Assembly: GCA_965205655.1 (NCBI GenBank)
Contig: CBDBIJ010000143.1
Span: 1-53,545 of the forward strand
Length of the DNA: 53,545 nt
Direction of reading: 5' to 3'
Source: Candidatus Latescibacterota bacterium
Lineage (GTDB): Bacteria > Latescibacterota > UBA2968 > UBA8231
Part shown: one piece after another, positions 5,784 to 33,955 of the stretch
Layout: every line of letters starts with the position of its first letter
Numbering within the stretch: the stretch's first letter is position 1
Translations under genes and position numbers: made by a program
Notes under the pieces: model-generated
Database searches by the model: none
Told to the model about the DNA's origin: nothing
What the model saw: the letters and a program-made list of their open reading frames with translations, nothing else

Positions 5784-5801
5784 CGATTCGGTCCCGCGTC
5801 A

Positions 5802-6932
5802 CTAACTCAGTGATATCGGGTAGTTGCCGTATTTGTATGTCGCCTCGAGCATGGCCGCGTAGTTGTCGATCGGCACGTACTCCGGAATCGAATTCCCCGA
5901 CGACACGCAGTAGCCACCACCCGGTCCCAGGTCGCGGATCCGCTCCCGCACTTCGGCATCCACCTCTTCCGGCGTCCCCTTCGTCAGGGTATACTGAAGA
6001 TCGATGTTGCCCAAAAGGGCGATGCGGTCGCCGTATTTCGCCTTCACCTCGTTGATGTCGTGGGCTTGCTTCTCTACCGGGTGCCATCCGTCGATGCCCG
6101 TAGCCAGCAACTCTTCGATCACCATGTCGATCTTGCCGTCGGTGTGATACACCATGGGCTTGTCCGCCGCCTTGGCCATGTCGGCCATCTGCTTGTAGCA
6201 GGGAAAGACGTATTTGCGGTAATGGGCAGGGGAGACGAGGGGCCCGTTCTTGCCCGACAGATCATCGGCGTGAAAGCTCATGCCGACCGACGGATGCGCC
6301 ATGGCGGCTTCCATGGCGCGCAGCTGCAACGGCACGACCTTGTCGTACATCATCTCGATGAGCTCGGGATCGTCGATGCAGGCGAGCATGAACGTCTCCA
6401 GCCCCATCATGAACCAGACACCCGTGAAGACCTTGCCGATGATGACGCTGATCTTCATGCCGTCCGGCAGCAGCGGCGCGACCTGGTCGAGCACGGAAAA
6501 GTCCAGGTTGTCCGGATCGGGCCAGTCGAACTCAGCGAACTCCTCCTTGGTGGTGATGACGCCCTTGTGCATCTCGGCCCAGTAACGCTCGGTATAGGCC
6601 TCGAGTTCGGCTCTGTAGGTCTTGGTCTTCGTGTGAGTGACCTCTACCTGTTCAGTCCTCTCGGTCTCGCGCCGCTTATGGTGGACGCTGATGACTGTCA
6701 GGGCCACCGGGTAGGCGTCGTAGCCGGCTTCCTTGTAGAACTCCATCTCATCCGCGTGGCCGCTAAGCGTGCGGCCCATGAACAGCTCCTTGATCTCGGG
6801 CTCGATGCTCATCTCGAAGATCGGGACGCAGTCCGGCTCTTTCAGTGCCAGCGCCGTCCTCAGCCGCTGAAAGTCGTTTCTTCTGTCGCCCTTCGCCGCC
6901 ATGGCTCTCTTGATCGATTCTGGTACTGCCAT
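5802..6932 (-). CDS. uroporphyrinogen decarboxylase (URO-D)/MtaA-CmuA-like family protein
   Basis: EPDCVP, ADDL, YHTDG, ALLGNID, GTPEEV, GGGYCVSSGNSI motifs; directly upstream of corrinoid protein. Confidence 0.88.
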   Translation of the reverse strand: MAVPESIKRAMAAKGDRRNDFQRLRTALALKEPDCVPIFEMSIEPEIKELFMGRTLSGHADEMEFYKEAGYDAYPVALTVISVHHKRRETERTEQVEVTHTKTKTYRAELEAYTERYWAEMHKGVITTKEEFAEFDWPDPDNLDFSVLDQVAPLLPDGMKISVIIGKVFTGVWFMMGLETFMLACIDDPELIEMMYDKVVPLQLRAMEAAMAHPSVGMSFHADDLSGKNGPLVSPAHYRKYVFPCYKQMADMAKAADKPMVYHTDGKIDMVIEELLATGIDGWHPVEKQAHDINEVKAKYGDRIALLGNIDLQYTLTKGTPEEVDAEVRERIRDLGPGGGYCVSSGNSIPEYVPIDNYAAMLEATYKYGNYPISLS

Positions 6933-9782: not shown

Positions 9783-12700
9783 CTATCTGAAAGCGCCGCT
9801 GTGCGGGCCACTCAATATTACGCGGGCCTCGACCAGCATCTCCAGCTGCGATTTGCAGAAGTCCACCTGAGGTGAAAACCTCGAAACATCGCTGTAGTTG
9901 TCTATCACTTTCTGAAACTCTTCCGCCGCCTGACGATACTTCTCCTGCGCCATGTAGGCGGCTCCGATATTCACCGCTGCGTTCACGGTCTGATCGCTGT
10001 CGGGATACTTCTCTATCACACCTCGGAAAATCTCGATGGCGCCCTCGTAGTCTTCCCTGTCGAATAGCTTTTCGCCCTCGGTGTAGATGTTGTAGGCGTC
10101 GATTTCGGACAGGTGCCCAAGGAGGACGGTGGCTTTACGCCGGAGCGGCCGGTCCTCCTTGATGAGCATGTCCTCCGGATACTGGGCGAGGAACTTCTCG
10201 TAGCTCTCCGTCGCTTTGTCGTACGCCTTTTCGCCGTAGTAGTAGTCACCCAGGGTATACTGGCTGCGGCCGCCGTAGCGCCCGTCTGGATAGTCGGTGA
10301 CGATCTGCTCGAAAATCGAAACGGCCGTGTCCTTCTTGCCGAGGTTGATCATTGCCCACGCCCGGTTGTAGAGTGCATCATCTGCGTAGTCAGAGCGCGG
10401 GTAGCGCTCGAGCACGGCCTCGTACCGGCTCAGTGCCTCTTCGAAAACCGCAACCTTGCGGGTCCAGGGTGAGGCCTTGAGCCGTGTTGAAGATCGCCTC
10501 GCCGGACCGGAAGAGCGCTTCGGGGGCGTGTTTCGAATTCGGGTAGATGTCGACCAGAGTTGAGAATGTGTCTGAGGCGTCGCGCCATTTCCCCAACCGG
10601 TAGAGCGCCCATGCGTCATAGTAGTGGGCGAACACTGCCTTGTCGTCTTCGGGATATTTCTCGTGGTACGTCCGAAACGCCTTCTGCATCATCGGGATGT
10701 ACTCGACTCTTCCCCCGGCCGACATTCTGTTATAGGCGACGCCGATCTGGAACTGGGCGTTTTTCGCCCAGCCGATCTGCGGATAGTTGTCGATGATTCC
10801 TTGATATGTTTCGATCGCCTCCCCGTTGCGCCCGGCACGGAAGTAGCTGTTCCCCTGGACGAACAGAGCATTCGAGATGCTCTCCGCGTCGAATCGCAAG
10901 GTCGATGAGCCGCTGAGGAGGCGTCGATGCTGCGATCGTACTGTTCGAGCCTGAAGTAGGCGCTGGCGAGACGGATGAGCACACGGGCACGGTCCTCCTC
11001 GGCATCCAGCTTGGCGAGCATTTCCTCGTAGGTGCGAATCGCGTCTTCCGGGTCCTGTTTTTCAGCCATGGAGATGAGTTGCAGCTGGGCATTCCGGGCC
11101 AGCGTCTCGTCTCCGGAATCGATGAACCTTGTGCAGCAGCTCGGTGGCGTGTGCGTCCTCACCGACAGCGGCGTAGGACAGCGCCATCGAGAACTCCACC
11201 TTCAGCTGCATCGCCTCTGGTAGATCCGAGTCCAGCAGCCACCGGTAGTCTTCCAGCGCCCGCGTGTAGACAGCGCCGAAGTGATAGGCGAGGCCCCTAC
11301 CGTAGCGGGCCTCGCGAATAGCCCCGCTCTCGGGATACTCGTCGATTACCTTCGTGTAGCGTTGGATGGCGTCCCGGTAGTTCTTCAGATTGAGGTCCAG
11401 CTGGGCCATCTGGTAATGGGCCGTGGCCTCGAGGTCTCGATCGCCCTGGACCCCGTCGAGCAGCTCGCTCAGCAGTTGCCTGCCTCGCTCGGATTGCCCC
11501 TCGGTGATGTGGATGTTGGCCGCCTCGATGAGGGAGGCCACGTAGATCTCCCGCGCGTCGCGACCCACCTGCGAGAAGGCGGCCACGGCGTCGTCCATGC
11601 GCCCCTGTTGTTTGTAGAGGCTGCCGAGGCCGTAGTAGGCGTCGGCTGTGTGGCGCGTCTCGCCGTAGGTGGCGGCGACCCTTTGATATGCCTTCACCGC
11701 TTCGTCCACTCGCTGCTGCTCGGAGTTGACTCTGCCCATTCTGAGCAGACACAGAGGCGCCTGGTCGGAACGTGGAAAATCATCGGCGACGCGGTTGTAA
11801 ATCTCCAGCGCACCGTCGTGATCTCCGAGTTTTTCGGACGACCAGCCGGCGCTGTAGAGGGCTGCTGCCCTGAGGCTCGTCTCGCTATCCGGATAGCGCT
11901 CAATCACTCCCAGGTACTCGGTGCGGGCCTCGGCGTACTGGCCGCCGAAGTATCGGGCCTCGCCCTTCTGGTACTGGGCATTGGGCGGATAGGACGTGTC
12001 GCCGTAGAGCTCGATCACCTGATCGTACGCCTTCCAGGCATCCTCGAAGCGGTCCCCACCCCATGTAGTTGTCGCCGAGCCGCATCTGGACCTTCGCCTT
12101 GTAGAAGCGCTCTTCCGCCGTCTCCTGCGCGGCGATCAGCTCCTGGTACGCCTCCTCGAACTGCCCTTCCTCGCGATAGATCTCCGCCACGCGCAGCGAT
12201 GACGTCTCGAAAAGCCCGAGGTAGTTCTCGAAGTCTACGTTCTTGCCCTCGCGGAAGGAGCCGCGCAGCAGCTCGTACATGAGGTCGTGCAGGTCGCGCA
12301 CCTCACGATAGCTGTCGATGGCCAGCTGGGAAGCTTCCCATCTTGTCATAAGCCCTGGCCTTCAGATAAACGGCATCGGCGATCGCCGGGCTCTCAGGGT
12401 ATCTGTCTAGGACGGCTTGCGCCTCGTCGATCGTGCGAGAATAGTCGCCTTTTTCGAAATGGCAACTGGCGATTCGAAACTGAGAGTCCGGGGCGTAGCG
12501 ATCCTCGGGATAAGCATCCAGCATCGCCAGCAGTGTCGTTACCGACTGGTCATACTGCTTCAGGTGGTATTCGCTCCAACCGGCGTAGAAGTAGGCCTCG
12601 CCGGCGTAGTCCGACTCGGGAAACAGCTCGACGTAACGCTTGTACTCCCTGGCGGCATCGCCGTACTCGCGCTGAAGGTATCGCGTTTCGGCTACCTGAA

Positions 12701-13072
12701 ATTGGACCAGCGACCGGAAGACTTCGGGCACGTTTTCGGCGGCTACCACCTTGCTGAAGTTTTCGATCGCCTTTTCGTGATCTTCGCTACGTTTGTAGGC
12801 GTTGCCGAGCTGATAGTAGGCGGCCTCCACGACGGGCAGCTCGAACCGGCCCGCGAAGGCGTCCTCGAAGGCGACGGTGACGCTGTCGTTGCGCACGGCC
12901 CAGCTCCTGAAGCCGACGATCTTCTTGTACTCGACGATCGCACCCTCGTACTCCCCGAGGGCGTATAGCGACTGCCCGGCGTCGAATTCGTCTTCAGGCT
13001 TTGCGGGACGGGGAGGAACATGCTCGTCCCCACTCCAAGCCCCAGGATGATAAATCCCGCCCAGACCGTCAT
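9783..13072 (-). CDS. large tetratricopeptide-repeat protein (~1090 aa; at least six frameshifts)
   Basis: Successive ORF fragments all carry BamD/CpoB-like TPRs (YPESDYAGEAYFYAGW, YPEDRYAPDSQFRIA, YPRSDYADDALYNRAW); hydrophobic N-terminus; AAGGAG RBS. Confidence 0.85.
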
Positions 13073-13145
13073 AAACAGATCTCCTTCGCTGCTACGTCGA
13101 TTGGGATCTCAATGTGTCTGCGATGTCCTCGTCGATGTCCTCTAC

Positions 13146-14100
13146 TTAGAACGTGCGGATCAACGAGAACCGGTGGGTGCCATTCGTCTCGGTCAGATCG
13201 AGGGGGATGTGATACCCGTAGTCGAGCAGCGTCTTCTCTCCCCAAACTGTAGCCCAACCCGGCGTTCAGATCGCCGCTGGCGTCGTCTTCGAAGATCTTG
13301 CTGCCGCTGGCGCGCAGCAGCAGCCCCTCGACCAGCACCGTCTCGCCTCCGACCACCAGCCGCTTGTCCGTCTCACCGGACAGATCGCGCATCGCCCACT
13401 GCACCGACAGCATCGAGGCGTCGGCCACGCTGAACGACACTCCCACGTTCAGATCCGTGGGCAGATCGCCGTCGTTCGATTCAAGCGCTGCATTCGGCGA
13501 GCAGGAGGCCCCGCAGGCCACGTTCGGCACCAGCGCGTTCTTGTACTGCACCCCCAGCTTCGCATCGCGGAACGGCGTATTCCACAAAATCCCCACGTCG
13601 GCGCCGATCGAGCCCTGGCTCTGGTTGGCCACCGGATCCGGCCTCCCGTTGTCGTCGGGAATGTCGCCCACGCTCCAGAACACATACTTCCCCGTCACCC
13701 CCAGGTGCAAATTCTTGTTCAGGCGATACGACAGGCCGAAAAAAGCCCCGTTCTCGCTCATCAGATCCGAGCCGATGCGCTCGTAGCCCAGACCAAGACC
13801 CAATCGCGACCCCAGCGGACGGGCGTAGCTGGCCACGTGCTGACCCAGATTGTCGCCGTCGATGCCCGAAAACAGAATCGACACATTCGTGTATGACAGC
13901 TGCCCGCGCTCGATCTGACCCAGCCCCGCCGGATTGGCAAACACGGCATCGCCGTTGTCCGCCACCGCCACGAAGGCGTTGCCCAGAGACGCCGAGCGCG
14001 CACCAGCGCCGATGCTCTGGATGTTCACCACCGCATCGGCGGCTGTTGCAGAGCCGACGATCAGCGCGATTGCTGCCGCCGCATTCAGTGCTCGTATCAT
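13146..14100 (-). CDS. PorV/PorQ-family outer-membrane beta-barrel protein (frameshift near 13240)
   Basis: Signal peptide, then IGAGARSASLGNAFVAVADNGDAVFANPAGL; removing one base near 13240 gives ...KTLLDYGYHIPLDLTETNGTHRFSLIRTF* ending in terminal Phe at stop 13146-13148. Confidence 0.82.
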
Positions 14101-15049: not shown

Positions 15050-16009
15050 TTAATCAGCTCCAAAGGAGGCCTTGATCCGGCCCCAGGACCCCTCCTGCAC
15101 GGCCGATGGCCTCTCCCCATCAGGCGATGCGAGCACGAGGTCGGTGAAGCGGTCGGACAGTTTGAAGGCGTTGTGCCCCCCCGACAGAGACCACCTGGCA
15201 TCGTATAACTCCGAGCGGCTGTCGAAGTCGTTGAACTCCACGTTGAAGCCCAGGACCTCTCCTGCAGTCAAGTCGTGGGGCTGGCTCAGGAAATCGGCAC
15301 TCATATCCACGCGATCGAATGGGGCAAGCATGAGCTCATAGCTCATCACGGCCTCTGCGCCGGTCGATCCCTCGAGTGCGAAGGCCGCTTGCGTGAAAGG
15401 CCCGTCCGCCAGTGAATACCACCCCGCCGCCGAAAAATTGATGAAGAAGTCCTCGTCCGGAGGGGGGGCGGCGATCACGAAGTGACTCGCCTCGGCCCCG
15501 TTGAGTCGGAGTTGATCCTCGGCGCTGGCATCAACGAAATCGGCAAACTGTCCGCCAGAGTGGTCGGAATCCAGGAAAACCTCCATGTCGTCGTCCTGGA
15601 AGATGCGCTGGGCGGCGGTTCCCGGTTCCCGGTCGATCTGGTGAATGTCGTCTCTCACTCGTGCCGCTACGAACAGCCTGTTGATCTCCTCGTTCCATCC
15701 CACCCACAGGGCGACGGAAAAGTCGTCGTCATCCACCTGGACATCACCGACCAGGTCTCGGAATGCCTCGGTCTCAATGGCGTAGCCAGGACCCACGAGC
15801 TGCCAGTCGGACAGGTCGCCGTCGATGGTGGGAACCGACTCGCTCGAAAACGGGAAGGCCCGGAAGACGGTCCCGGTGGGCTCGTGGCCCCAGCCGCCGC
15901 CCGGATGAGATAGAACCCCGAGCGTCGCAGCGAGGAAGAGCCTTGATTTCGCCACCCGATACCACCTCGATCGGAGGGTGTCTGGCGCTATAAACGACGT
16001 CGTCTTCAA
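15050..16009 (-). CDS. secreted CBM9/DOMON-like protein with C-terminal SWGRIKASF tail
   Basis: Signal-like N-terminus; PTIDGDLSDW, WVGWNEEINRLFVAARVRDD, DDMEVFLDSDHSGG, LGFNVEFNDFD. Confidence 0.72.
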   Translation of the reverse strand: MKTTSFIAPDTLRSRWYRVAKSRLFLAATLGVLSHPGGGWGHEPTGTVFRAFPFSSESVPTIDGDLSDWQLVGPGYAIETEAFRDLVGDVQVDDDDFSVALWVGWNEEINRLFVAARVRDDIHQIDREPGTAAQRIFQDDDMEVFLDSDHSGGQFADFVDASAEDQLRLNGAEASHFVIAAPPPDEDFFINFSAAGWYSLADGPFTQAAFALEGSTGAEAVMSYELMLAPFDRVDMSADFLSQPHDLTAGEVLGFNVEFNDFDSRSELYDARWSLSGGHNAFKLSDRFTDLVLASPDGERPSAVQEGSWGRIKASFGAD

Positions 16010-16047
16010 TCCGATCTCATCTCCATAATGAGTTGCACCACAACAAG

Positions 16048-17396
16048 TTATGCCCCACTGCTTCGGGCGTCAACGACGCGGGCTCGGCGGCGGCGTGGTC
16101 TCCATTCGATGCGGTCGTCGTATTTGCTCCGCAGCTCGGCGATATAGGCGTCGACCGCTCGCCGGCTCTTTGCCGCTTTGAGTTTGTGTAGCAGGATCGG
16201 TTTGGCCCTCTCGAGACCACGGCTTCGGAAACTGTCAGGCTCCGCCTCGAAGCTCGCTGCGCACATCAGCCTCTGAGATGGTCACCCGTTGCAAGACGTG
16301 GCGCCGCAGCAGCTGGCCAACGAGAAGCTTGCGGTAGCGTCTCCTGGTGTCGGCTATGAACTCGGGGGTGTCGCGCCAACCCTCTTGCGGTGGCCTGTAG
16401 AACGAACAGCGTGTCGGCCATCACCCAGCGACGCAAGGCGGAAACGGCCGAACCGGTATCCTTCAAGGCGCTCGCGGAGAGGCCGCGGCCGCCAAGAATT
16501 CTGCGAGCGTGGCTCAGCGGGACGATTCGGCCTTCGCCGTAGGTGACGATCGGCGAATCTGCCTCGGCTATCGCGTCGCTCTCATCTGAGTGGCCGGGTC
16601 GCATCAGCGCCGCTATGGCGGCGCTATCGTACTCGACCTCGAATCGCACCTCAAGGCTGCGAAGATACCCTTCGTATGCGGTGCGGAATTTCCGGCGGCG
16701 CAGTGCTGATTCGAGACGGGGCCGGACCTCTTCGAAGGGAACCTCCTCGATTTCGAGGACGCGAACGATCTCGATCCCCTCCGCAGTCCGCACCGGCTCC
16801 GAGTATTCGCCAAGCGACAGACTCAGAGCCGCGTCGAACAGCTGGGGACTGCCATCTCCGGGTCCGTAGGGTTGCATCATATCTCCACCGCGAATGCCGT
16901 CCATGGCCAGCGATCGCTCTATCGCGAGCTCGGCGAAATCTGCTCCGTCCCGCAGCTCGGCAAGCACCGCTTCTGCCTCTGGTCGTGAGGCGGTCACGAT
17001 GTGAGCCGGCCACAGCCTGCGATCCCACCCCTCGTCGCGGTATGCGGTGGCGATTTCTTCCTCCGAAATATCGCGCCCGACATCGAGCTCGCGTTCGAGG
17101 ACGCGGTTGGTCACGCGCTCGATCAGGTAACGATGGAGCCTTTTCCTGATTTCCGGCTCGTTGGCGTAGCCGAGTTCCTCTGCCTCCAGAATCAATATTT
17201 GGCGGTCGACGAGGGTCTGCTGGAGTTCCCGTTCGGCTGCCGCGCCGCCCTCGGGAAGGAGGTAATCAGGGAGGGTATTCTCGAACAGACTGAGATCAGA
17301 CGAGGTTATGGCGACGTCGTCAATTGTTGCCAGCACGTCTGTTGCCAGCACGTCGTCACCATCGGGGCCGGCGCACGTGGCGACGAGGCCGGCCAA
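16048..17396 (-). CDS. PrsA/SurA-like parvulin peptidyl-prolyl isomerase (frameshifts near 16380 and 16260)
   Basis: LATIDDVAIT, AHIV...GADFAELAIERS...RGGD...YSEPVRT..G.EIV parvulin motifs; C-terminal LRSKY helix in ORF 16048..16266. Confidence 0.82.
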
Positions 17397-17443
17397 CAGC
17401 GAAGAGATCGTCAGAAATGCGGGAGAGAGTTTGACAGAAGAAT

Positions 17444-18376
17444 CTATCGGAAGCTTGCCTTGATGCGGGCCCAGGTGTCCGTTTGCACGACTGTCTTCGG
17501 AGCCATGCTGCAGTCACCGGTGTTACACGGGACCAGTTCGGCGTCGACAAACCTGTCGGCCTCGAAATAGGTTCCCTCAACTCCCGACAACGTGTGAAAT
17601 CCGTGGTAGGGGTTCCCGACACAGCTCCAGCAGCCGCGATCGAAGTCCGGGACCGAGATCTGTAACCCCACGATGCTGCCGGCGGTCAGGTCACTGGCGA
17701 CGCTGCTCTCCGGTCCTCGCCAATCGAGCTGGTCCCACGGTGTCACGTACATCTCGATAATAGAGCTGTTCGGCGACTCGCCGCCGTCGTTGAATCCGCC
17801 GCCGTCGGCGTACGGCGGGAAGACGACCCAGTCGTTTCCCGCTCCGGCATATCCCAGGGTTTGATTGTCGGGGGACTCGGCGATCGCGAAATATTGCTGC
17901 GCCTGAGAATTGGTCAGGTGCTTCCTCTGATCCTCCTCGACACCCCTGAACCGGTTGTAGCGGCCCCCTGAATGATCGCCGTCGATCATGAACTCGATGC
18001 CGTCGTGCTCGAACAGCCGACTCGGATCGCCTCCATCATAGCTGTTGACGTAAGCGTCATCTACCCTCTCGATCGCCACATAGATGAGATTGCCCGCATC
18101 GTGCCATGCCAGGAACACCCGATAGGCGAGATCGGAGGGATCGATGCCCGCGCCATCTCCTATGTCCAGCGGAGCGAAATCGTTGTGGTCAAATGAGATG
18201 CCGGGCAGTACGTCATTCCAGTCGTCCATGCTGCCGTCGTATATGTCGGGCAGATCGACCGTGGGGAGCTCGAAAATCGGAAACTCCCGGTCGCCCACGT
18301 GGGCACTGGCTTGTGAAATCGGACTCGCTATGATTGCCAGGATGAGAATCGCGATCGCGGATGATCCTGTTGCCAC
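17444..18376 (-). CDS. secreted CBM9/DOMON-like protein with C-terminal TWARIKASF tail
   Basis: Signal peptide ending ASA-H; DGSMDDW, FLAWHD..NLIYVAIERVDD, DGIEFMIDGDHSGG; paralogous to 15050..16009. Confidence 0.72.
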   Translation of the reverse strand: MATGSSAIAILILAIIASPISQASAHVGDREFPIFELPTVDLPDIYDGSMDDWNDVLPGISFDHNDFAPLDIGDGAGIDPSDLAYRVFLAWHDAGNLIYVAIERVDDAYVNSYDGGDPSRLFEHDGIEFMIDGDHSGGRYNRFRGVEEDQRKHLTNSQAQQYFAIAESPDNQTLGYAGAGNDWVVFPPYADGGGFNDGGESPNSSIIEMYVTPWDQLDWRGPESSVASDLTAGSIVGLQISVPDFDRGCWSCVGNPYHGFHTLSGVEGTYFEADRFVDAELVPCNTGDCSMAPKTVVQTDTWARIKASFR

Positions 18377-18397
18377 GAAATGGTCCTGGCGGTCAAC

Positions 18398-19339
18398 TCA
18401 CGGCGAAGCGCCGTCGGGGATTGCTGTTCGTCCCGCTGGATGTGGCCATGTCTCCTCATCCGCTGTCCTGTCCGCTGCGGGCTTGAACATGAGGAGTCTC
18501 ACGTCGTGCATTCCGATGGCGAATTGGCCTGTCACCGTCTTCCCAGTAAAGGCCGATCCAACGCGACGCTCAAACATGCGGTCTGTCTCACCGGAATACC
18601 GCGCCGTGCTCGCGTCCACGCTGCCCTGAATGGTCTTACCCGACCACAAGGTGACCGCTATAGGCCGCCGCTCGAGGCCGCTGCTCGCTTCTGCGAAGGC
18701 GATCTTGGCGATTTTCGACAAACCGACGCTTCTCCGCTTACGACCCTGATTCAACACCAGAGCTGTCGTCTCGCGGAAGTTCAAGTCGTCGACCTCGAAA
18801 AGCCTCCCCTGTTCGTCTACGACCGTCGCGGAAAGAGAGAACTCCGCGCTTGGCAGACTCGACTCGGGATGTCGAAAAATGATCTCCCGGACGTCGTGAA
18901 GCTGCAACAGGAACGGCCCGAGATTGGTAGATCCACTCACCTGGCTGCTGAGTCGGGCCCCTCCAATCGTGTCGTGGTGAGGCGTCCCGCGGCTACCGAT
19001 GACGATGGTGCCGTTCTCCACCCTGCCATTGCGTAACTCGACCCGAATCGGACGTTCCTCGTCGCCTCTCTCGCCGTCCAATCTGAAACCAGCGATCTCT
19101 CGAAAAGAGATGATGCGCCGCTCGTCTCCACGGTAGTACTCCATATTGGTCTTTCCAAGAATCTCGATCTTGCCGAGGAGATGGCGATTGCCGCTGTAGT
19201 CGACCACGGTCGCGCCCAATTGAGATTGTTGGGATTGTCGAGATCGTTGAGCGTGGGACGGACCGGTTGCCGACAGGAGTAGGGTCACCAGTATGATCGG
19301 AGACCCTCCTCGCAGCAGCGTCGGTACTGTAGAGATCAT
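18398..19339 (-). CDS. secreted hypothetical protein with two internally similar halves
   Basis: Signal peptide (SHA-Q); repeated pattern ATVVD...E(E/R)RPI.V.L..G....G...F...HDVR in both halves. Confidence 0.68.
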   Translation of the reverse strand: MISTVPTLLRGGSPIILVTLLLSATGPSHAQRSRQSQQSQLGATVVDYSGNRHLLGKIEILGKTNMEYYRGDERRIISFREIAGFRLDGERGDEERPIRVELRNGRVENGTIVIGSRGTPHHDTIGGARLSSQVSGSTNLGPFLLQLHDVREIIFRHPESSLPSAEFSLSATVVDEQGRLFEVDDLNFRETTALVLNQGRKRRSVGLSKIAKIAFAEASSGLERRPIAVTLWSGKTIQGSVDASTARYSGETDRMFERRVGSAFTGKTVTGQFAIGMHDVRLLMFKPAADRTADEETWPHPAGRTAIPDGASP

Positions 19340-20016
19340 GGGGATTGGGGCTCATCCTCCTGCCCTGGTTCCTCCGTCGTTTCCTGCCCGATCCGGACGA
19401 ACGAGGGCGGCCGGCCGTAGACCACCTCTACAGGGCGGATCTCGTCGAAGCCGGTGGGTGAGTTCTCCATACGAATCTTGTACTGTCCCTCGGGCACTAT
19501 GAAGTGGCGTACCTGCCTCGAGGTCATTCCCCGGCCGAGGACGTTGCGCATAGTGTAGTCCATGATGACAAACGGCATGTTCGCTCCGAACTGCGTACCG
19601 GCTACCATGACCTGAAAGCGGCCGACTCGAACGGAGACGTATTTCTCTATATTTGCGGTCAGTTGGACATTCTCGAACACTACGTCGTCGTTCACATCTG
19701 TGTTTACGACAACTGTGTAGACTCCCGGTTCCAAGTCGACGATCAGGTTGGTCTGCTTCAACCCCGACTCGTAGGCGCTTGGCGACATGGCCGACAGGCG
19801 TGGAAAAGCGGAGTGGACCTCCTCACCCGTCTCCTGATCCGTCACGAAGAAGTTTAACTCTCGGATACCGCCGGCCTCGAGGATCAGACGACCACTGCCC
19901 TGGGGTATGGGACCGGGACCGTACTCGTAGCTACTTCCGGTCGAGGCGCACGAGACTATAAATAAGACACTCCCTGCCAGCGCCGCGGAGACTGCTGTGT
20001 TTGCCAGTTTCTTCAT
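19336..20016 (-). CDS. hypothetical lipoprotein
   Basis: MKK... lipobox IVSC; GGAGG RBS at 20023-20027; LEPGVYTV and VPEGQYKI beta-sandwich-like motifs. Confidence 0.72.
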   Translation of the reverse strand: MKKLANTAVSAALAGSVLFIVSCASTGSSYEYGPGPIPQGSGRLILEAGGIRELNFFVTDQETGEEVHSAFPRLSAMSPSAYESGLKQTNLIVDLEPGVYTVVVNTDVNDDVVFENVQLTANIEKYVSVRVGRFQVMVAGTQFGANMPFVIMDYTMRNVLGRGMTSRQVRHFIVPEGQYKIRMENSPTGFDEIRPVEVVYGRPPSFVRIGQETTEEPGQEDEPQSP

Positions 20017-20033
20017 CTGATACCTCCGCACGG

Positions 20034-20042
20034 TACGCTCCC
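20034..20042. repeat. left target-site duplication TACGCTCCC
   Basis: Identical to 21419-21427. Confidence 0.92.
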
Positions 20043-21418
20043 GAGCTATAATCAGAAGGTGTGGAAATAGACAGACGGCGATCCTACCCTTCCTTTGTAA
20101 TTAGCCATCACAAACGCCGGGGCTATCCCGGCAGGAAGAGGAGAATCGCCATGGCACAACCTAAGCCGAGCACGACGGAAATGTCCATGCCCACGTTCGA
20201 AACGCTGGAAGAGTGGACACGCTCGCAGATTCAGTCGCTGATGCAGTCGGTTCTGGATGAAGAAGTCACCCATGCGCTGGGACGGTCACGGTACGAACGA
20301 CAGGCACCGTTGGACGCAGCCGGCGGCTACCGCAATGGGTACGGGAAGCGGCGGCGACTGTCCTTGACCTCGGGCACGATCGAGGTGAAACGCCCTCGGG
20401 TGCGGGGTCTGGAAGAGCGATTTGAGAGTGCGGTACTGCCGCTGTTCGCCCGGCGCACCCAAGAAACAGGTCAGCTGCTGCCAGAGCTTTACCTGCACGG
20501 TTTGTCTCAGGGCGACTTCGAGCTGGCGCTGCGCGGCCTGCTGGGCAAGGGAGCGCCTTTGTCGGCGTCCTCGATCGCTCGTTTGCGTGAGAAGTGGATC
20601 GTCGAATACAACGCCTGGCGCAGCCGACGACTGGATGACCGCGAGCTCGTCTACGCCTGGGCGGACGGGATCTACGTCAAAGCCGGTCTTGAGAAGCAAA
20701 AAGCCGCTCTCCTGGTGGTCATCGGCGCGATGAGCGATGGGCGCAAAGAAGTCCTGACGATTGTCCCGGGCTATCGCGAATCGACAGAGTCGTGGGCGGG
20801 CGTACTGCGCGATCTGCGTGACCGCGGACTGAGCGTGGCGAAGTTGTTGGTGGCGGATGGGCACCTGGGTATCTGGGCGGCCCTGGCAGAGGTCTGGCCG
20901 GAGACGGCTGAACAGCGATGCTGGAATCACCGCATCCTGAACGTGCTGGATAAGCTGCCAAAACGCGTGCAGGTCGAAGGGCGGCACCTGCTGACACAGA
21001 TCCCGTACGCGCCGACCCGTCAGGAAGCGACGAAACGTCGCGATCAATTCGCCAAACGGTTTCGCCGCGAGTGTCCAGACGCCGTCGATATCCTCGAGCG
21101 CGATTGGGACCGTATGGTGACATTCTACGACTTTCCCGAGGCCCACTGGCAACACCTGCGCACCACCAACGTCGTCGAAAGTCCCTTCGCTTCGGTACGG
21201 TTGCGAACCAATGCGGCCAAACGATACAGGAAGGTGGCCAATGCCACCGCCCTCATTTGGCGGGTACTGATGGTGGCCGAGAAACGATTCCGGCGACTCA
21301 ATGCACCGCATCTCATGGCTGACGTCTACGCCGGGGAGTGCTACGAAAACGGATCACCCATCGCGCAAAGGAAGAAGATCGCCGCCTGAGTCGTTTACAC
21401 ACCATTTGACCCTAGCTC
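20043..21418 (+). mobile_element. IS256-family insertion sequence (1376 bp)
   Basis: Imperfect terminal IRs GAGCTATAATCAGAAGGTGTGGAAA vs reverse complement of right end GAGCTAGGGTCAAATGGTGTGTAAA; flanked by 9-bp direct repeat TACGCTCCC. Confidence 0.93.
20151..21389 (+). CDS. IS256-family (Mutator-like) DDE transposase
   Basis: YRNGY, ELYLHGLS, WADG (D), VADG (D), QRCWNH (CxxH), TTNVVES (E); GAGGAG RBS. Confidence 0.95.
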   Translation: MAQPKPSTTEMSMPTFETLEEWTRSQIQSLMQSVLDEEVTHALGRSRYERQAPLDAAGGYRNGYGKRRRLSLTSGTIEVKRPRVRGLEERFESAVLPLFARRTQETGQLLPELYLHGLSQGDFELALRGLLGKGAPLSASSIARLREKWIVEYNAWRSRRLDDRELVYAWADGIYVKAGLEKQKAALLVVIGAMSDGRKEVLTIVPGYRESTESWAGVLRDLRDRGLSVAKLLVADGHLGIWAALAEVWPETAEQRCWNHRILNVLDKLPKRVQVEGRHLLTQIPYAPTRQEATKRRDQFAKRFRRECPDAVDILERDWDRMVTFYDFPEAHWQHLRTTNVVESPFASVRLRTNAAKRYRKVANATALIWRVLMVAEKRFRRLNAPHLMADVYAGECYENGSPIAQRKKIAA

Positions 21419-21427
21419 TACGCTCCC
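21419..21427. repeat. right target-site duplication TACGCTCCC
   Basis: Identical to 20034-20042. Confidence 0.92.
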
Positions 21428-21488
21428 TTCTGTTGGGCTTAGTCTGGCTCTGTGTCGCTATGATCATCGTTCGTTCGGTCAGTGTCAA

Positions 21489-22706
21489 TCAATAGGCTCG
21501 CCAGCTCGGCGACGCCTCGTCCCTGTCCGGCGTGTTCGTAATGTTGACAGGCATGGTGGGACGCTCTTCGGCGTCGTCCCAGTCGAAACCGACGGCGGCG
21601 ACTATGAAGATGTCGTAGGAGCCCTCAGGACGATACTTGCCCGTCCTCTTGTTGAAGGAGACGTCGAGCACTCCGTCCTCGCGCAGGTTCATTTTTCCCT
21701 GGTAAACGATCGATCGGCCGTCGTCGGAGAACTCCGGGTCTTGCTCGAGGGTTTGTTCGGCTATGGTGATGCGCACCAGCTGGCCGCTCTCGACACCTGC
21801 GATCATCAGTTCCTGTCCGCCGGCGCGCTCAGAGTTGAACGCCAGCCGCAAACCGTCCGGCGACCATGCGGGAAACCCGTCGATGCGCTTCTGGTCCGTG
21901 ATGCGGCGCAGGTTGGTGCCGTCGGCGTCGATGATGTAGATCTCGTCATTGCCCTCGAACTGGCTGGAGGTAAAGGCGATGCGCCCCCCATCCGGTGACC
22001 ACGACGGCTCCCGACCCTGAACGAGTCTTCGCTTGGCGCCGCCGTCGGCGTTCATGATCCACACCGCCACCTCCCCTTCCCTTTGACTTACGAAGGCGAT
22101 CTGATCGCCTGTCGGCGACCACGCGGCTCGCTCGTCACGCTCCTCGTGTTCCGTCAGGCGCACGGCGCCCGATCCGTCGTCGTTTATCGCGTAGACGTCG
22201 AGGTTCGTGTACACCTCGCCCCGCGTGAATAGAATCTTCTCGCCGCCAGGCGACCAGGATGGATGTTGCTCGCTTTCCTTGGTGTCTGTCAGCTGGGTGA
22301 GCTCGCTGCCGTTCGTCTTGATGGTGAACAGATCCCAATCGCGGACTTTTGTGGGGCTGGAGGCAAAGACGATGGTGCCTTCTGTGGCGGGCGCCAGATT
22401 CGATCCTGGAGGGAGTTCAAAGCTGAGCCGGTACGAGCGCACGCCGGAGAAGGGCTCCGAATCGACCGCCAGGGTCTTGGTCTCCAGATAACTGGTCCCC
22501 AGCACGCTCACCGTGTATGAGCCTTTGCTGACTTCCTCGAACCTGAATACGCCGGCATCCACGAGTCGGTTGAGCTTGTGCTCGAGCTGCCCGGCGACCA
22601 GGCGAAGCTTGTTGCCATCGCCGCCGACGATTTCAACGGCCACCTCATTGACGCCGCACGAGGTCGTCCACATGAGCAGAGCTGCCATTGGGAAAGTCCG
22701 CTTCAT
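21489..22706 (-). CDS. TolB-like PD40 beta-propeller lipoprotein
   Basis: Cys after hydrophobic N-terminus (TTSC); repeated PSWSPGG/AWSPTG/PSWSPDG/PAWSPDG blades. Confidence 0.87.
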   Translation of the reverse strand: MKRTFPMAALLMWTTSCGVNEVAVEIVGGDGNKLRLVAGQLEHKLNRLVDAGVFRFEEVSKGSYTVSVLGTSYLETKTLAVDSEPFSGVRSYRLSFELPPGSNLAPATEGTIVFASSPTKVRDWDLFTIKTNGSELTQLTDTKESEQHPSWSPGGEKILFTRGEVYTNLDVYAINDDGSGAVRLTEHEERDERAAWSPTGDQIAFVSQREGEVAVWIMNADGGAKRRLVQGREPSWSPDGGRIAFTSSQFEGNDEIYIIDADGTNLRRITDQKRIDGFPAWSPDGLRLAFNSERAGGQELMIAGVESGQLVRITIAEQTLEQDPEFSDDGRSIVYQGKMNLREDGVLDVSFNKRTGKYRPEGSYDIFIVAAVGFDWDDAEERPTMPVNITNTPDRDEASPSWRAY

Positions 22707-23449
22707 CCTTTCTTCACTTCCGTCCCGCGCTGACTACCCTCGAATCGAAAACTGAGATCGCCGATTCGCGTTTGGAGCTCTGCCATCAATTCGCCCACGT
22801 CGGCGAATTCGTCCGAGTAAATCGGCGCTCCCACCCGAAAGAACACGGCGGATCGCGGCGCCATGATATTCTCGTACTCGAGCCCGACGGGAATCATCGG
22901 AACGCGCAGACCCCCTTCCCTCTCTACGGAAATCATGTGCTCGATGACCTGCTTCTGGAGCACGCCCATGTTGTCGGCACAGCGCGTGCCCTCGGGGTGG
23001 GAAACCACCAGTTCACCAGTGGTGTACAGCCACGCCAGATAATCGAGCGTATGCTGATTTCTGTCACGGGCCCACTCGATCCTTTGGCGACGAACGTCGC
23101 GATCCTCGATGCGGCGAATATCGCGGGGCCTGACGATCTTGACCCCACCGAGCACCTCCAGAATCCCGTACAGGCCGACCTTCATCACATAACTGGCGTG
23201 CCGACTCGTCAATCTGTGAAGGAGCACTCCCTCGACGACGATGTCTCGATAGGCGCGGTGCTTGGGCAGGATGAGCGCCGTCCCGGAACGCGGCAAATTT
23301 TCGCCACCCTCGACGACGAATCGGTGATAGAGAAACAGAGGACCCTTGGACAGGTTCCGGACGGCGGTAGTTACTTTCTCCCAGCGCCGTAGGCGGAACT
23401 CGGTTCCCGGCTTCGTCTCAGACGATGTGGGGATCGTAGTAGGATCCAT
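22703..23449 (-). CDS. PlsC-like lysophospholipid acyltransferase
   Basis: KHRAYRD (HxxxxD), HPEGTR, IPVGL motifs. Confidence 0.85.
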   Translation of the reverse strand: MDPTTIPTSSETKPGTEFRLRRWEKVTTAVRNLSKGPLFLYHRFVVEGGENLPRSGTALILPKHRAYRDIVVEGVLLHRLTSRHASYVMKVGLYGILEVLGGVKIVRPRDIRRIEDRDVRRQRIEWARDRNQHTLDYLAWLYTTGELVVSHPEGTRCADNMGVLQKQVIEHMISVEREGGLRVPMIPVGLEYENIMAPRSAVFFRVGAPIYSDEFADVGELMAELQTRIGDLSFRFEGSQRGTEVKKG

Positions 23450-23461
23450 GACCCGCAAACA

Positions 23462-23496
23462 GAGGGGGGCTTTGCGTATTCACAAAGCCCCCTTTC
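23462..23496 (-). terminator. probable intrinsic terminator
   Basis: GGGGGCTTTG-N8-CAAAGCCCCC stem downstream of 23533..24120; short T tail. Confidence 0.6.
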
Positions 23497-23532
23497 AACG
23501 ACTCGAGCCCTTTCTTCGGCGGCCCTGCTCGG

Positions 23533-24120
23533 TTACTTGAACAGTTCCTTCACCTTGCCCCAGGTGTTGAAATCCACCTCCGTCATCACCGGCCCGGGGT
23601 GGCTCGCCGCCAGGGCACTCGTCACTTCGGGCAAGACCTCACCGGTTCCCTCGACCACCAGTGCACCGGCGCGGCTTTCGAGGAGGAGGAAGTCTTCAGC
23701 CTCCGGGTGCGGTTTCTCGAGCCAGGTGACGACCCTTCCGGACATTGGAGAGAGCGGAGACGACTCCCATGCGTCTGCCGGTTCGCGCTCGCGAACAGCT
23801 GAAGCGGGGACCATGAAAAACGTCGGCCCGAAGCGACGACCCATATCGGAGAAAACGTCCGGGACCTCCGAGGGCAGGTACACGCCCACGACATCGACCG
23901 TGGCATCGAATGGGTCCATGGCGAGTTGAATGTGCTGCAGCCTCACGAGGTGGTCGTCGATATCGGGATCGAAAACGTATACGACCTGATACGGTGCGAG
24001 CAGATCGACATCCAGATCCCGCGCGCGCGCGACGTCTCCGTCAGTCTGGATGGTCGGAATCCAGAGCACAGCAGCAGCCGTGACAGCGATCACTCGCATG
24101 TGTTTCGGACCAAATCGCAT
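23533..24120 (-). CDS. secreted hypothetical protein with C-terminal TWGKVKELF tail
   Basis: Signal-like N-terminus; body unrelated to the CBM9-like pair; shared C-terminal motif. Confidence 0.68.
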   Translation of the reverse strand: MRFGPKHMRVIAVTAAAVLWIPTIQTDGDVARARDLDVDLLAPYQVVYVFDPDIDDHLVRLQHIQLAMDPFDATVDVVGVYLPSEVPDVFSDMGRRFGPTFFMVPASAVREREPADAWESSPLSPMSGRVVTWLEKPHPEAEDFLLLESRAGALVVEGTGEVLPEVTSALAASHPGPVMTEVDFNTWGKVKELFK

Positions 24121-24137: not shown

Positions 24138-25268
24138 TTACTCTGCCCGGACGGAGTAACCTGTTTCGATCTCGCCCTCTCCCTGGACGATCTGCGCTTG
24201 GGAAAGGTGATCGGTCAAAACCTGCGCTACCTGTACCACTCCCACCCGGCGGGGAAGAGCGAAACCGAGGGCTACTCCAGTCCCTGGATCCGTCAACTCG
24301 CGACCGTTGTCCCAGACGCCGAACTTGTCGCCGTTCCGAATCCCATCCGCCAAGCCCACATTAATATAAGCTCGTAGGCCGTCGATATCTATTATTTTGG
24401 GCTCGGAGACGGATAGCGAGGGCGGTGGGGGTATCAGCTCAGTCAGACTGTGGGCCAGGTCCTGGAGGCATTGACCCACCGCCTGGCCCACGAGGGTCTC
24501 GTGAAACGCCTCCGTGCCCCATTCGTACTCCTCCAGAAAAATGTACTCGCGGTCGAGGGGGACGTGGGCGGCGGGGTTGACGATTCCCGTGCGCTTGCTG
24601 TCGGTGAGAGTATCTGCCCGATACTCCCCCCTCGCTCGGCCGTCGATAACGTTGTACAGCAGCACCGTCACGGTCGCCACCCCCTGGTAGCTGCGATACC
24701 CGCCGAGGGGCACCGTCGCCCGCATTCGATTCATCGTCAGGTTTTCGATCTCGCCGACGATGACGACGTCGGCGCCGAGCTGCCGCCCCACAGCGATGAT
24801 CCGACCCTTCGTGATTCTCCCTTCGAGCTCGTCTTCGTCGAGCAGTGTCAGGGCCCTCTCCGTGGGGATGACCCGGAAGAACTCGTGGCCCGCCAGTGAA
24901 TCCGCCAGACCGAGCGGCAGCTCGGTGTAGATATCCCACGGGCCACCGTACTTGGACAGATCCAGGAAGGGAAGTAGCAGGATCGCCTTCTTGAGCGCCG
25001 CATCGCCGTCGAGGACGGTTTCGCCATCCTCGTTCACCAATCCCCCGCTTGCGGGGGATTCGCGTGCGGCACGCGCCGCTGCCGTGCCTGCATCCACTTC
25101 GACCTGCGCCGCGCTCGCGTCCGCCGCAGCGGACCTCTCTGTTGGACTCGAGCCTTGGGCAGCGGAGCTCGAGTACCACTTGGCGACAGAGGTACAACCT
25201 GCCAGGCACAGCCAGGCAGTTGATATCAGCAGGAGCCAGATCAAGGCGCCGTACCCCGGACGCGACAC
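24138..25268 (-). CDS. lipoprotein with CsgG/TolB-N-like domain and FlgT C-terminal-like domain
   Basis: Lipobox LAGC; ILLLPF..., GRQLGADVVIVGEI, LYNVIDG; C-terminal YINVGLADGIRNGDKFGVW...LTDPGTG..LG. Confidence 0.7.
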   Translation of the reverse strand: MSRPGYGALIWLLLISTAWLCLAGCTSVAKWYSSSAAQGSSPTERSAAADASAAQVEVDAGTAAARAARESPASGGLVNEDGETVLDGDAALKKAILLLPFLDLSKYGGPWDIYTELPLGLADSLAGHEFFRVIPTERALTLLDEDELEGRITKGRIIAVGRQLGADVVIVGEIENLTMNRMRATVPLGGYRSYQGVATVTVLLYNVIDGRARGEYRADTLTDSKRTGIVNPAAHVPLDREYIFLEEYEWGTEAFHETLVGQAVGQCLQDLAHSLTELIPPPPSLSVSEPKIIDIDGLRAYINVGLADGIRNGDKFGVWDNGRELTDPGTGVALGFALPRRVGVVQVAQVLTDHLSQAQIVQGEGEIETGYSVRAE

Positions 25269-30980: not shown

Positions 30981-33955
30981 ATGGACGACGAAAAAGATCC
31001 AAAGCAGGCCAGCTCCACAGAAGAGGAAAACGCGGGCGATGACGCCGACCTTCTCGGTGGGCTCGAATCCCTGCTCGACGAGGAGAGCACTGGCCTCGAT
31101 CTGGGCGATGACGACCTCAGCGAAGACGACCTCACCGATCTGTTCGACGACGATGAGGATGGATCGGAGCCTGAGAGTACCAAAGACGCCAGGCAAACCA
31201 AAGATCGGGGACGACCGCGCTCAGCGCGCCAGGACCGCCGGCTGCGGGATCAGGAGGGGTACCAGAGCCTGGAGGCGCACCTCCGGGCGACGCCCCTCGG
31301 CCTGGAGATTTCAGATGACAAGATGACGGCCACCGTCAGCCGCATCACGGCTGACAACTCCCTGGAGGAGATCCTCGGCCTCATCAAGCGCGAAAAAATC
31401 GTCAACGGCATCGACCACGATGCGATCCGCACGGCTCTCTCCAAAGCGGCCACCGGCCAGAGTCAATATGAGGTAACCGTCGCCCGGGGCGACCGCCCCA
31501 ACGTCGTCACGCCCACCGAAATCGTTCATCACCTTCCCGAAGAGCTCATCACCGAGAAAGACGCGCAGAAGACGGATTTTGAGCGCCTCAAGAGACTCCT
31601 GGAGGGAGAATTCCTGGAGGCGTGCAAGAATTGGGAGGGACCGGTCAAGTTTGTCCGCAAGGGGGATCTCATCTCCGAGATCATACCCGCCGAGATCGAG
31701 CCCGGCTGCGATGTCTTCGGAGGGCAGGTGGCGCTGGAGAACACTGCCACGCTTTCATTGGAGGCCGGGGACAACGTCACCTTGTCCGAGGACGAGATGC
31801 AGGCGACGGCGGATTTGTACGGCTACGCCGGGCTCCTCTTCGGTCAGCCCACGGTCGTTCCACCCGTGTGGATGTCCAATGACCACATGGAGGCACGCTT
31901 CGTCTACCATGCTCCATCCTCCGACCCCCCAGTGCCCAGCGAAGAGGAGCTGCTCGAAATCCTGGAGATGAAGTGGATCGAATACGGCGTCATGGAGAAG
32001 CAGCTGGAGCTGATCACCAAGCGTATGGAACAGAAGCAGGCCCTGCCTGTGAGCGTTCCGATCGCCCAGGGAACGCCGGAAATTCACGGCGAGGATGCGC
32101 AGATCAAGTACGCCTTCGATCCCTTCGAGCTGATGAAATGGAATCAGCTGCAGAGTATTCTCAGTCTCAAGACAGCGGAAGAAATAGACAGCTCCCTCAA
32201 CATGCTGTATGAGGACGACGAGGAAGACAACAGCGGCATCCGCTTCAAAGCCGTTCGTCCCGACGACGTCGTGGCGGAGAAAATCCCGGCGACCTCCGGT
32301 GTGGTCGGCAAGGATATCCAGGGAGAGGATGTCACGCCCAACGAGGGCAACGACGTGCCGCTGGAGTTCGGGGAAGGGCTGGTTGTCAGCGGCGATGGTC
32401 TGAAGTGCACGTCACAGCACTTTGGGTTCGTGGGCCTGAAGTGGGACATCGAGATGAACGTGTTCTCGCCGCTGTTTGTCTCGCCGGACCGAGTCGCCGT
32501 CTACTTCCTCAACCTGCCCCAGAGCCAGAATCCCAGGTACCCCTCGGTCGAGCATATGCAGGCGTTTGATGGACCAGACTGAGATCCTACACGGCTACAA
32601 CGCCGAGCGCTGGGCCGAGACTCTCCAGGAGCTCGAAGCAGGCACCAGGACTGAGTACCTCATCTGCGTCGCTCAGGCCACACCTGCACAGCCTGGCGAA
32701 GACGCCCAGTTCGAATGGACCGTCCAGATCGAGGCCAACCAGCCCGGCAAGATAATGGAGGACGGCACCATCGACTTCCGAGATCGCAACTTGAACACGG
32801 TCGTTTCCGAAGGCGACATGCTCGGCAAGCTCGTTCCGCCCAAGGCGGGCGTGCCCGGCAAGGACGTCTACGGCGACGTGCTTCAGCCGCCGGCGCCGCT
32901 CAACATCGAGATCGTCACGGACTCCCGCATTTACGCGGAGCCGGAGGAAGACGGCCGCATGGCGTTTTTCTGCGAGAGTGGCGGCGGCATCGCCACGGAT
33001 GAGGAGATCAAGACGGTCAAGGGCCGGACCCACAAGCGCATCAACATCGGCGTCTACCCGATTTCCAACATCGAAGGTGACGTGGACTATCACACCGGCA
33101 ACATCGACTTCAACGGCGATGTCGTCATCGGCGGGTCGGTACAGTCTCAATTCTCCGTAAAGGCGACCGGGTCCGTGACCATCGCCGGATACATCGAGGC
33201 AGGGGCTTACGTCACCGCCGGCAAGGACCTGCTGTGCCAGCGCGGTGTGGTGGGAGCGAGCACGGAACTGGTCGCGGGCGGCGACGTCATGGCCAAGTTC
33301 ATCCAGGAGTCCACCGTCAAGGCCAGCGGCGACATTAGGGTCGGCAGCTACATCTTCAACGCCTCCGTCAGAGCCGGAGGCGAGGTTGTCGTGCCGGGAA
33401 TGGGCGAGGGTAAATCGCGCGCCCTCGTGGGCGGTTTGATCTGGGGGGCGAAGGGAATCTCGGCGCGCTCCGTCGGCTCCCCGTACAACACGAGCACCAG
33501 ACTCGTCGTCGGCGTCGATCCGGACCAGGTGAATCGCGCCGACCAGATCCGCGCCAACATGCAGGCCTGCCAGCAAAAACAGCTCAAGCTGCTGAAAAAG
33601 GTCGGTGTCGACACCCTCGATTTGCAGCTCATCAAACAAAAGCTCGCCCATTGCGACTCACCCAAGCAGAAGCAGGCCATGCTCATGGCGGTCAAGCGCA
33701 TCGCCAAGATCGCCGAGCTTGAGCAGAACCAGCAACAGGAGCTCGAGGAGATCGCCGAGGCCCAGCGGAAAACTGTCGCGCCAGACGAACGTCAACGTCA
33801 TCGCCGAGTTCTTCGCCGGCGTCGAGCTCAGGATCGGGGAGCAGACCGACCTCATCCGCGAGGACTCGGAGAAGGTGAGCTTCCGCCTCGTCACCGAGGA
33901 GGAAGAGGAGAAGATCCAGATGGACGGGCTCAGCGGCAACGTGAAATTGTCATAG
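30981..33955 (+). CDS. large FapA/DUF342-family protein (frameshifts near 32560 and 33770)
   Basis: Repeated ISxDKMxA / GxD(V/I)xG units, DGTIDFRDRN, GDVDYHTGNIDFNGDVVIGGSV, beta-helix, T.LVVG, coiled coil, FFAGVELRIG C-terminus in ORF 33605..33955. Confidence 0.82.

Follow-up and report, generated by a model that had tools for sequence, protein, structure and literature searches.

A short, portable C-terminal tail on exported proteins of Latescibacterota and its co-occurrence with the type IX sortase PorU

The T9SS (type IX secretion system) provides the closest described counterparts of the element reported here. Export by the T9SS is said to need a folded C-terminal domain (CTD) (PMC11285876), and the type B CTD is presented as a second signal class with PorP/SprF shuttles of its own (PMC12618676). 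Prevotella intermedia has short CTDs (43 to 55 residues) with which cleavage and glycan attachment still take place, and PorU of this species prefers the site PT/GI, with a small residue in position +1 and Ile in position +2, in the coil between body and CTD (PMC11969387). Here, we describe a C-terminal tail of 16 to 18 residues (consensus T-[AS]-V-[EQ]-x-x-[ST]-W-G-x-[IV]-K-x-x-[FY]) on three exported proteins encoded in a 53,545-nucleotide window, i.e., contig C143 (CBDBIJ010000143.1) of a 4.0-Mb, 84% complete genome from a Latescibacterota bin (GCA_965205655.1). The evidence supports the tail as a portable, conserved, C-terminal, and non-transmembrane tag on exported proteins that belongs to no curated family. 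Its presence nests inside that of the T9SS sortase PorU, and it is almost confined to genomes with PorU. We infer that the tail acts as an export or attachment signal. Our preferred reading, to which we give a probability of about 0.5, is that it is a miniature tag recognized by a T9SS-associated reader, from which the cargo would pass to PorU for attachment or holding.

The tail in the window and in its host genome

The original prediction proposed that three minus-strand open reading frames (ORFs) of the window (genes 1 to 3; Table 1) share a C-terminal sorting signal, and the C-terminal ends that it quoted are exact in the window translation. Since genes 1 and 2 are paralogous to each other (27% identity; E 1.6e-25), the portability of the tail rests on gene 3 and on the rest of the genome. 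The body of the gene 3 protein matches no other tail-bearing body and no Pfam or NCBIfam family, in agreement with its earlier description as unrelated, and all three proteins pass a crude hydropathy heuristic for the signal-like N termini ascribed to them. The lack of a transmembrane helix was also borne out, with maximal 19-residue hydropathy values of 0.08, 0.35, and 0.97 in the last 45 residues. One accompanying label, "CsgG-like" for 24138..25268, found no support in Pfam or NCBIfam. Named homologues of the window proteins were mostly labeled Candidatus Latescibacterota, with some Gemmatimonadota.

The six frames of the host genome contain four matches to the strict pattern [TS]W[GA][RK][IV]KxxF, which is close to the one first proposed, all within 10 residues of a stop codon. 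A position matrix separated 17 sites (scores of 21.5 to 44.8) from the remainder (14.6 or less), and a hidden Markov model search likewise yielded 17 tails, 15 of these sites being seeds of the profile that finds them. The tail is confined to C termini in that no more than 28 residues separate 16 of the 17 from the stop; the remaining one, in a DUF3179 frame on contig C11, is 162 residues away. A looser pattern, [TS]W[GA]x[ILVM]K, was found in crudely called genes at 13 sites within the final 30 residues (105,750 residues in total) and at two sites elsewhere (1,141,452 residues), i.e., an approximately 70-fold C-terminal enrichment. Rather than occurring equally in cytoplasmic proteins, the tail is carried mostly by proteins with signal-like N termini: the heuristic detected a signal peptide in 12 of the 17 carriers, compared with 828 of 3,063 genes (27%), and, of the five misses, two are truncated at contig ends and three are fragment-like. 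No Pfam or NCBIfam family covered the tail in the three window proteins, the other carriers, or 63 tails, and the models TIGR04183, PF18962, and PF13860 had no match in the three window proteins or 63 tails. The earlier statement that the tail matches no known sorting signal thus holds for characterized families but not for a relation to the T9SS, to which its PorU-site-like front half and its co-occurrence with PorU point. An Atlas search with the tail returned one unnamed match at 0.85, and a search of representatives returned mostly FN3 repeat proteins.

One CBM9-like family of paralogues accounts for seven of the 17 carriers, genes 1 and 2 among them. The rest comprise two CBM96-like proteins; luciferase-domain, Cache, FGE-sulfatase, PD40, Kelch, and DUF3179 proteins; a contig-edge fragment; and gene 3. 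The structure of the gene 2 protein was predicted from a 112-row alignment (an AlphaFold model from the single sequence was unusable, with a predicted local distance difference test score [pLDDT] of 31). Its body has a mean pLDDT of 90.8 and matches CBM9 1i82 (Table 1); it is followed by a coil (residues 283 to 301) and a helix (W302 to F308) with a pLDDT of about 70. The back half of the tail, [ST]-W-G-x-[IV]-K-x-x-[FY], is thereby predicted to be a short helix on a flexible linker. In a list of 120 gene 2 family members, a regular expression finds the tail in 112, and at least four more carry a variant (family consensus P-T-A-V-[EQ]-x-D-S-W-G-R-I-K-A-S-F-R). Homologues of gene 3 occur in 4 of 40 family genomes and keep the tail in all four.

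The seven CBM9-like carriers might suggest that the tail is a chance string or an integral piece of one domain. This idea is so improbable that we set it aside, being ruled out by the C-terminal enrichment and by the location of the tail outside the folded body in the gene 2 model; at least nine unrelated bodies bear the tail, which is as portable as originally claimed. A role in periplasmic quality control or in recognition by a protease, with no link to surface display, would suit a short C-terminal sequence on exported proteins, and foldase genes adjoin several tail genes. We consider this role very unlikely, given that the nameable bodies are mostly binding modules (CBM9, CBM96, Kelch, PD40, Cache, and FN3) and that the tail replaces a CTD behind an FN3-like domain (see below).

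The CBM9-like tail genes (host C73, C91, C5, and C138, and G015:C61) often share operons with PPIC foldase genes and with genes that encode CTD proteins or large proteins resembling barrels. Degenerate tails (PWSVIK and SWTELR) end two predicted lipoproteins at host C38:13708-15206 (L014 and L251), with two PorV-family genes and a CTD protein nearby, and a lipoprotein from Eisenbacteria (L087) bears the tail in full.

Co-occurrence of the tail and PorU across genomes

We sampled 150 Latescibacterota relatives in families f1 to f14, where f1 is the window's family and f2 to f4 are its sister families. The first tail model was positive in f1 (63/63), f5 (1/1), f6 (2/2), f7 (1/1), f9 (5/6), f11 (3/3), f12 (1/1), and f13 (3/3) and low or nil in f2 (1/30; E 0.005), f3 (0/19), f4 (0/2), f8 (0/5), f10 (2/13), and f14 (0/1). 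Since this model missed the form of the tail found in Ignavibacteria and Rhodothermia, the negatives were rerun with a broader one, which gave 0/30 in f2, 1/19 in f3, 0/2 in f4, 0/5 in f8, 4/13 in f10, and 1/1 in f14. The f10 and f14 matches inspected are true C-terminal tails, and the lone f3 match (E 0.04, 70 residues from the stop) was judged to be chance. A PorU-specific segment was found in f1 (61/63), f8 (4/5), f10 (12/13), and f14 (1/1) and in none of the f2 (0/30), f3 (0/19), and f4 (0/2) genomes; the two f1 genomes without it are fragmented (76% and 87% complete). Each of 19 f2/f3 genomes checked has one C25 gene, of a large non-PorU type (about 1,900 amino acids [aa] where complete), and one f2 and one f3 genome (G007 and G057) retain SprA, a PorV orthologue, and FlgD-type CTDs (8 and 16, respectively). 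Families f2 to f4, which are without the sortase, are also without the tail (no real match, 0/51), and the rest of the T9SS is kept where checked. Tail numbers in f1 reach at least 57 scored matches per genome, with 64 in another complete genome.

The 51 genomes of f2 to f4, in which no PorU was found, would have a T9SS that secretes without sortase attachment.

The tail is not limited to this phylum. One genome per species was scanned with a DNA pattern that encodes T-W-G-x-I-K-A-x-[FY], which gave at least 120 loci; the pattern fixes these letters, so their conservation in the set is by construction. Among the loci listed, 104 lie within 20 residues of a stop, and the 16 others comprise 13 copies of one internal site of one protein (which we take to be translation factor IF-2), a tail 22 residues from the stop, and two unrelated sites. 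The labels include Eisenbacteria, Krumholzibacteriia, Zixibacteria, KSB1, Marinimicrobia, Calditrichaceae, Delongbacteria, Aegiribacteria, Kryptoniota, Ignavibacteria, Rhodothermaceae, Bacteroidota, and Latescibacterota. Thirty-one of 36 loci picked as likely small proteins encode one secreted FN3-like protein of 130 to 154 aa that ends S-[SGA]-V-x-x-T-W-G-S-I-K-A-M-F-R; no family passed its cut-off for this protein, and the Atlas gave unnamed clusters. It is conserved across Ignavibacteria, Rhodothermia, KSB1, Marinimicrobia, and others, with housekeeping neighbors that vary by lineage. Records that bear the names Melioribacter roseus, Rosettibacter primus, Roseithermus sacchariphilus, and Rhodothermus sp. 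contain the single-copy form. Of 121 genomes from the Melioribacter phylum, 43 carry the tail, 42 of them exactly once, and the 20 loci read are all C-terminal. The protein as such is absent from the Latescibacterota profile hits, which contain the domain only, mostly in longer frames. In two host genes, the FN3-like domain directly precedes a CTD (E 8e-5 and 0.007); the same domain therefore stands before either the tail or a CTD, and the two occupy the same slot.

A different secreted tail protein of about 135 aa was seen at L033:1498-1917 (labeled Zixibacteria), L029, L061, and L080. Its gene is flanked by a putative Rex-like regulator gene on one side and a putative anti-sigma factor pair on the other.

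The PorU model matched all 41 tail-locus genomes (35 over the cut-off) and none of seven controls. In the Melioribacter phylum, PorU passed the cut-off in 41 of 42 tail-positive genomes, compared with 10 of 20 listed tail-negative genomes (78 in all). Because these genomes are kin and thus not independent, we do not rely on a p-value for the association.

This distribution bears on a role independent of the T9SS, in which the tail would be an amphipathic helix lying on a membrane leaflet or binding a periplasmic or envelope partner, with the overlap with PorU reflecting shared ancestry. Such an anchor would suit the spacing of W, I/V, and F/Y (i, i+3, and i+7, with basic residues between); many PorU-positive genomes are without the tail, and the within-class contrast is probably a single event. 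We nevertheless regard it as unlikely, as no complete many-tailed genome without PorU was present among those searched, the near invariance of W, G, and K is more suggestive of a protein pocket than of lipid, and the helical hydrophobic moment of the window tails is modest (0.38 to 0.42). In two of the three tails, the strand moment exceeds the helix moment (0.75 to 0.77 versus 0.38).

The front motif, the serine PorU, and the proposed route

At the level of sequence, the front half of the tail resembles the published PorU cleavage site PT/GI. The motif [TS][AGS][VI] stands at a fixed place in 11 of the 17 host tails (background of 0.0035 per position), and among the 112 tailed gene 2 homologues its positions are held by T/S in 109, A in 100, and V in 107. 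A related motif, [TS][AGSD][VI][EDQSKAT], lies no more than 40 residues before the CTD in 9 of 41 PNP-type CTDs of the host, compared with 6.6% of random windows. It precedes 22 of 98 CTDs in four PorU-positive genomes and 0 of 20 in two PorU-negative genomes (p 0.023), where genomes other than the host contribute only part of their CTDs.

The host encodes a T9SS with SprA, 13 PorV-family matches, 50 FlgD-type CTD matches, and three C25 genes (two PorU-like genes and one of a 1,935-aa type). The PorU on contig C127 passes NF033707 (649.7 bits; cut-off of 420), and PorU carries a CTD of its own. Most f1 genomes have one PorU match, including single-contig genomes with at least 57 tails. The Pfam model for PorZ is insensitive (5 of 47 match, the host not among them).

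In the route that we favor, the cargo would be exported to the periplasm, where its terminal helix would be bound by a candidate T9SS-associated reader. The cargo would then reach PorU, which may recognize T-[AS]-V-[EQ], the front half, just as it would recognize this motif ahead of a CTD. Where a lineage has a cysteine PorU, the protein would be cut after Thr and linked to surface glycan; in the serine-PorU family, PorU would either act through Ser or only hold the cargo. A bolder version, which is possible and which we advance tentatively, is that the tail constitutes a third class of T9SS signal, i.e., a 16-residue peptide replacing the CTD that began on the approximately 130-aa protein and expanded in Latescibacterota and Eisenbacteria (dozens of cargos), with a serine PorU in f1.

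Several points weigh against the route through PorU. The main objection in print is the need for a folded CTD cited above, and PorU cleavage has been called sequence-independent (PMC4804311). Two of the three window tails (TVVQ and TEVD) have no small residue at +1. A weight-matrix form of the linker test found no difference between PorU-positive (34/98) and PorU-negative (8/20) genomes (p 0.8); this form picks up the CTD's own P-T-E-F start. A PorV tree was built from 12 host loci and 30 fetched ones, chosen as the best among about 80 matches from five genomes; it contained no paralogue specific to tail-positive genomes, and no dedicated reader gene was found in it. As for the distribution, PorU is common in these phyla anyway and is insufficient for the tail (f8, PorU 4/5 and tail 0/5; f10, PorU 12/13 and tail 4/13). 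The joint absence from f2 to f4 is probably one loss event, since the f2 and f3 PorV sequences are sisters. Tail-positive genome G209 has a PorU match only below the cut-off, and two controls (L037 and L065) have the pattern within 20 residues of a stop and no PorU; they were judged to be chance before the search and would be exceptions if their tails are real.

Cleavage by PorU is also doubtful in the window's family because Ser replaces the catalytic Cys. Aligned to P. gingivalis PorU (6za2), the C127 copy has Ser at the catalytic Cys column, equivalent to C690 by alignment count, and C690A is the published catalytic mutant (PMC5562754). Both host copies, f6, and 61 of the 62 relatives that were aligned have Ser in this column, and the His is present in 62 of 62; Cys is kept in the sampled PorUs of f5, f7 to f14, and other phyla. 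The serine PorU occurs in f1, a family with some of the highest tail counts, and its strictly conserved Ser-Gln site would be expected of a serine enzyme as well as of a binding scaffold (pseudo-enzyme). A complex prediction with PorU (residues 585 to 1195), PorV, and the last 35 residues of the gene 2 protein scored 0.00 twice, with the controls also unfolded, and thus speaks neither for nor against the route.

The retention of this serine PorU in 61 of 63 f1 genomes would also be expected if the tail were a noncovalent docking peptide that is never cleaved and by which the cargo travels outward on, or inserts into, a CTD-bearing carrier or surface scaffold, for which PorU is a candidate. The CTD of PorU itself and the predicted lipoproteins that also end in tails (L087, and degenerate ones on C38) favor such docking. 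It leaves the match between the front half and the CTD-linker cleavage motif unexplained, however, and the cysteine is retained in most other tail-positive lineages sampled; we consider docking unlikely.

Gene neighborhood and comparison with known systems

The PorV-like gene of the window has a close paralogue at host C147:15180-16676 with different neighbors, and the other 14 tail genes do not typically adjoin counterparts of the PorV-like and TPR genes of the window. The TPR ORFs at 9783-12896 (minus strand) overlap in different frames and resemble one long gene in pieces, and the foldase gene changes frame relative to a paralogue on C144; these frame breaks are possibly assembly indels. 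A Mutator-family (IS256-type) transposase gene at 20061-21389 (plus strand) is inserted against the direction of the gene cluster that it interrupts, parts of which are syntenic in G077, G204, G061, and G099. Farther away are two adjacent FapA-domain genes at 30981-35631 (plus strand), one with four FapA_N repeats, and a pair encoding a corrinoid protein and an MtaA/CmuA-like methyltransferase at 5052-6932 (minus strand).

Table 1. Positions of tail-bearing proteins, tails, and associated genes. Positions without a prefix are those of the window.
Feature	Position	Strand	Remarks
Exported CBM9-like protein 1, tail-bearing	15050..16009	-	319 aa; PF06452 weak, E 1.4e-4
Tail 1, S-A-V-Q ... S-W-G-R-I-K-A-S-F, through stop codon	15050..15106	-	
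Exported CBM9-like protein 2, tail-bearing	17444..18376	-	310 aa; Foldseek to CBM9 1i82, E 3.3e-10
Tail 2	17444..17494	-	Coil, then predicted helix W302-F308 outside folded body
Exported protein 3, tail-bearing	23533..24120	-	195 aa; body unrelated, no known family
Tail 3, T-E-V-D ... T-W-G-K-V-K-E-L-F-K, through stop codon	23533..23583	-	
Divergent PorV/PorQ-family barrel, not a PorV orthologue	13069..14100	-	64 bits; cut-off of 90
PPIC-type foldase between tail genes 1 and 2	16253..17396	-	Frame change near 16380
PorU copies of the host	C127:24489-28556 and C121:43274-46039 (L250, L018)		Ser at catalytic Cys column, His kept
FN3-like tail protein of about 130 aa	L092:1498-1905, L026:1114-1530, L078:1126-1533, L102		

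The tail is undescribed in the full-text literature searched, including searches for the literal motif and for T9SS with Latescibacter, with most subscription papers and supplements outside this coverage. The present analysis contributes the joint loss of tail and PorU, the front motif common to tails and CTD linkers, the small protein that cultured species have in single copy, and the caveat of the serine PorU. If the preferred reading is true, a 16-residue signal feeding an attachment machine would change the view of T9SS substrate recognition, as export is held to need a folded domain. The tail would then be a very small display tag and would assign a location to many "hypothetical" proteins. 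Its single-copy occurrence in cultured bacteria makes the question testable outside uncultured lineages.

The signal recognized by the β-barrel assembly machinery, like the last strand of autotransporters, is a barrel's terminal β-strand ending in an aromatic residue. The tail is helical in the gene 2 model and its bodies are not barrels, but two of the three window tails have the higher strand moment, so that the comparison points both ways. Tripartite signals (LPXTG, PEP-CTERM, GlyGly-CTERM, and MYXO-CTERM) resemble the tail in being C-terminal, multicopy motifs on unrelated proteins with signal peptides (10.1101/2023.06.07.544157). They have a transmembrane helix and a basic cluster, whereas the tail has neither a transmembrane helix (hydropathy of 0.08 to 0.97) nor a terminal Arg cluster. 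The type B CTD of the T9SS is also unlike the tail: it has about 100 residues and five motifs, and a shuttle gene is often linked to it. The neighborhoods of the 17 tail genes, read by eye, contain no recurrent shuttle-like gene.

The type A CTD (TIGR04183/PF18962, and the FlgD_ig PF13860 type in this phylum) is, like the tail, C-terminal, portable, and carried by Sec-exported cargo, and the tail appears to share with it a PT/GI-like opening motif in a flexible linker (PMC11969387). The host of the tail encodes SprA, PorV, and PorU, as hosts of type A CTDs do. The type A CTD is a folded, Ig-like β-sandwich of 70 to 100 residues, whereas the tail has about 16 residues, a predicted helix, and no motifs B, D, and E, and, unlike the CTD, it is restricted to some T9SS lineages. 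P. intermedia's short CTDs are a precedent for CTD shrinkage, but they keep a three-stranded sheet and motifs B, D, and E; the tail is a third as long, and the part in common is the cleavage-site-like motif. The tail did not pass the structural tests for type A CTDs or those for tripartite signals and is therefore assigned to neither class; by analogy, it would work most like a CTD.

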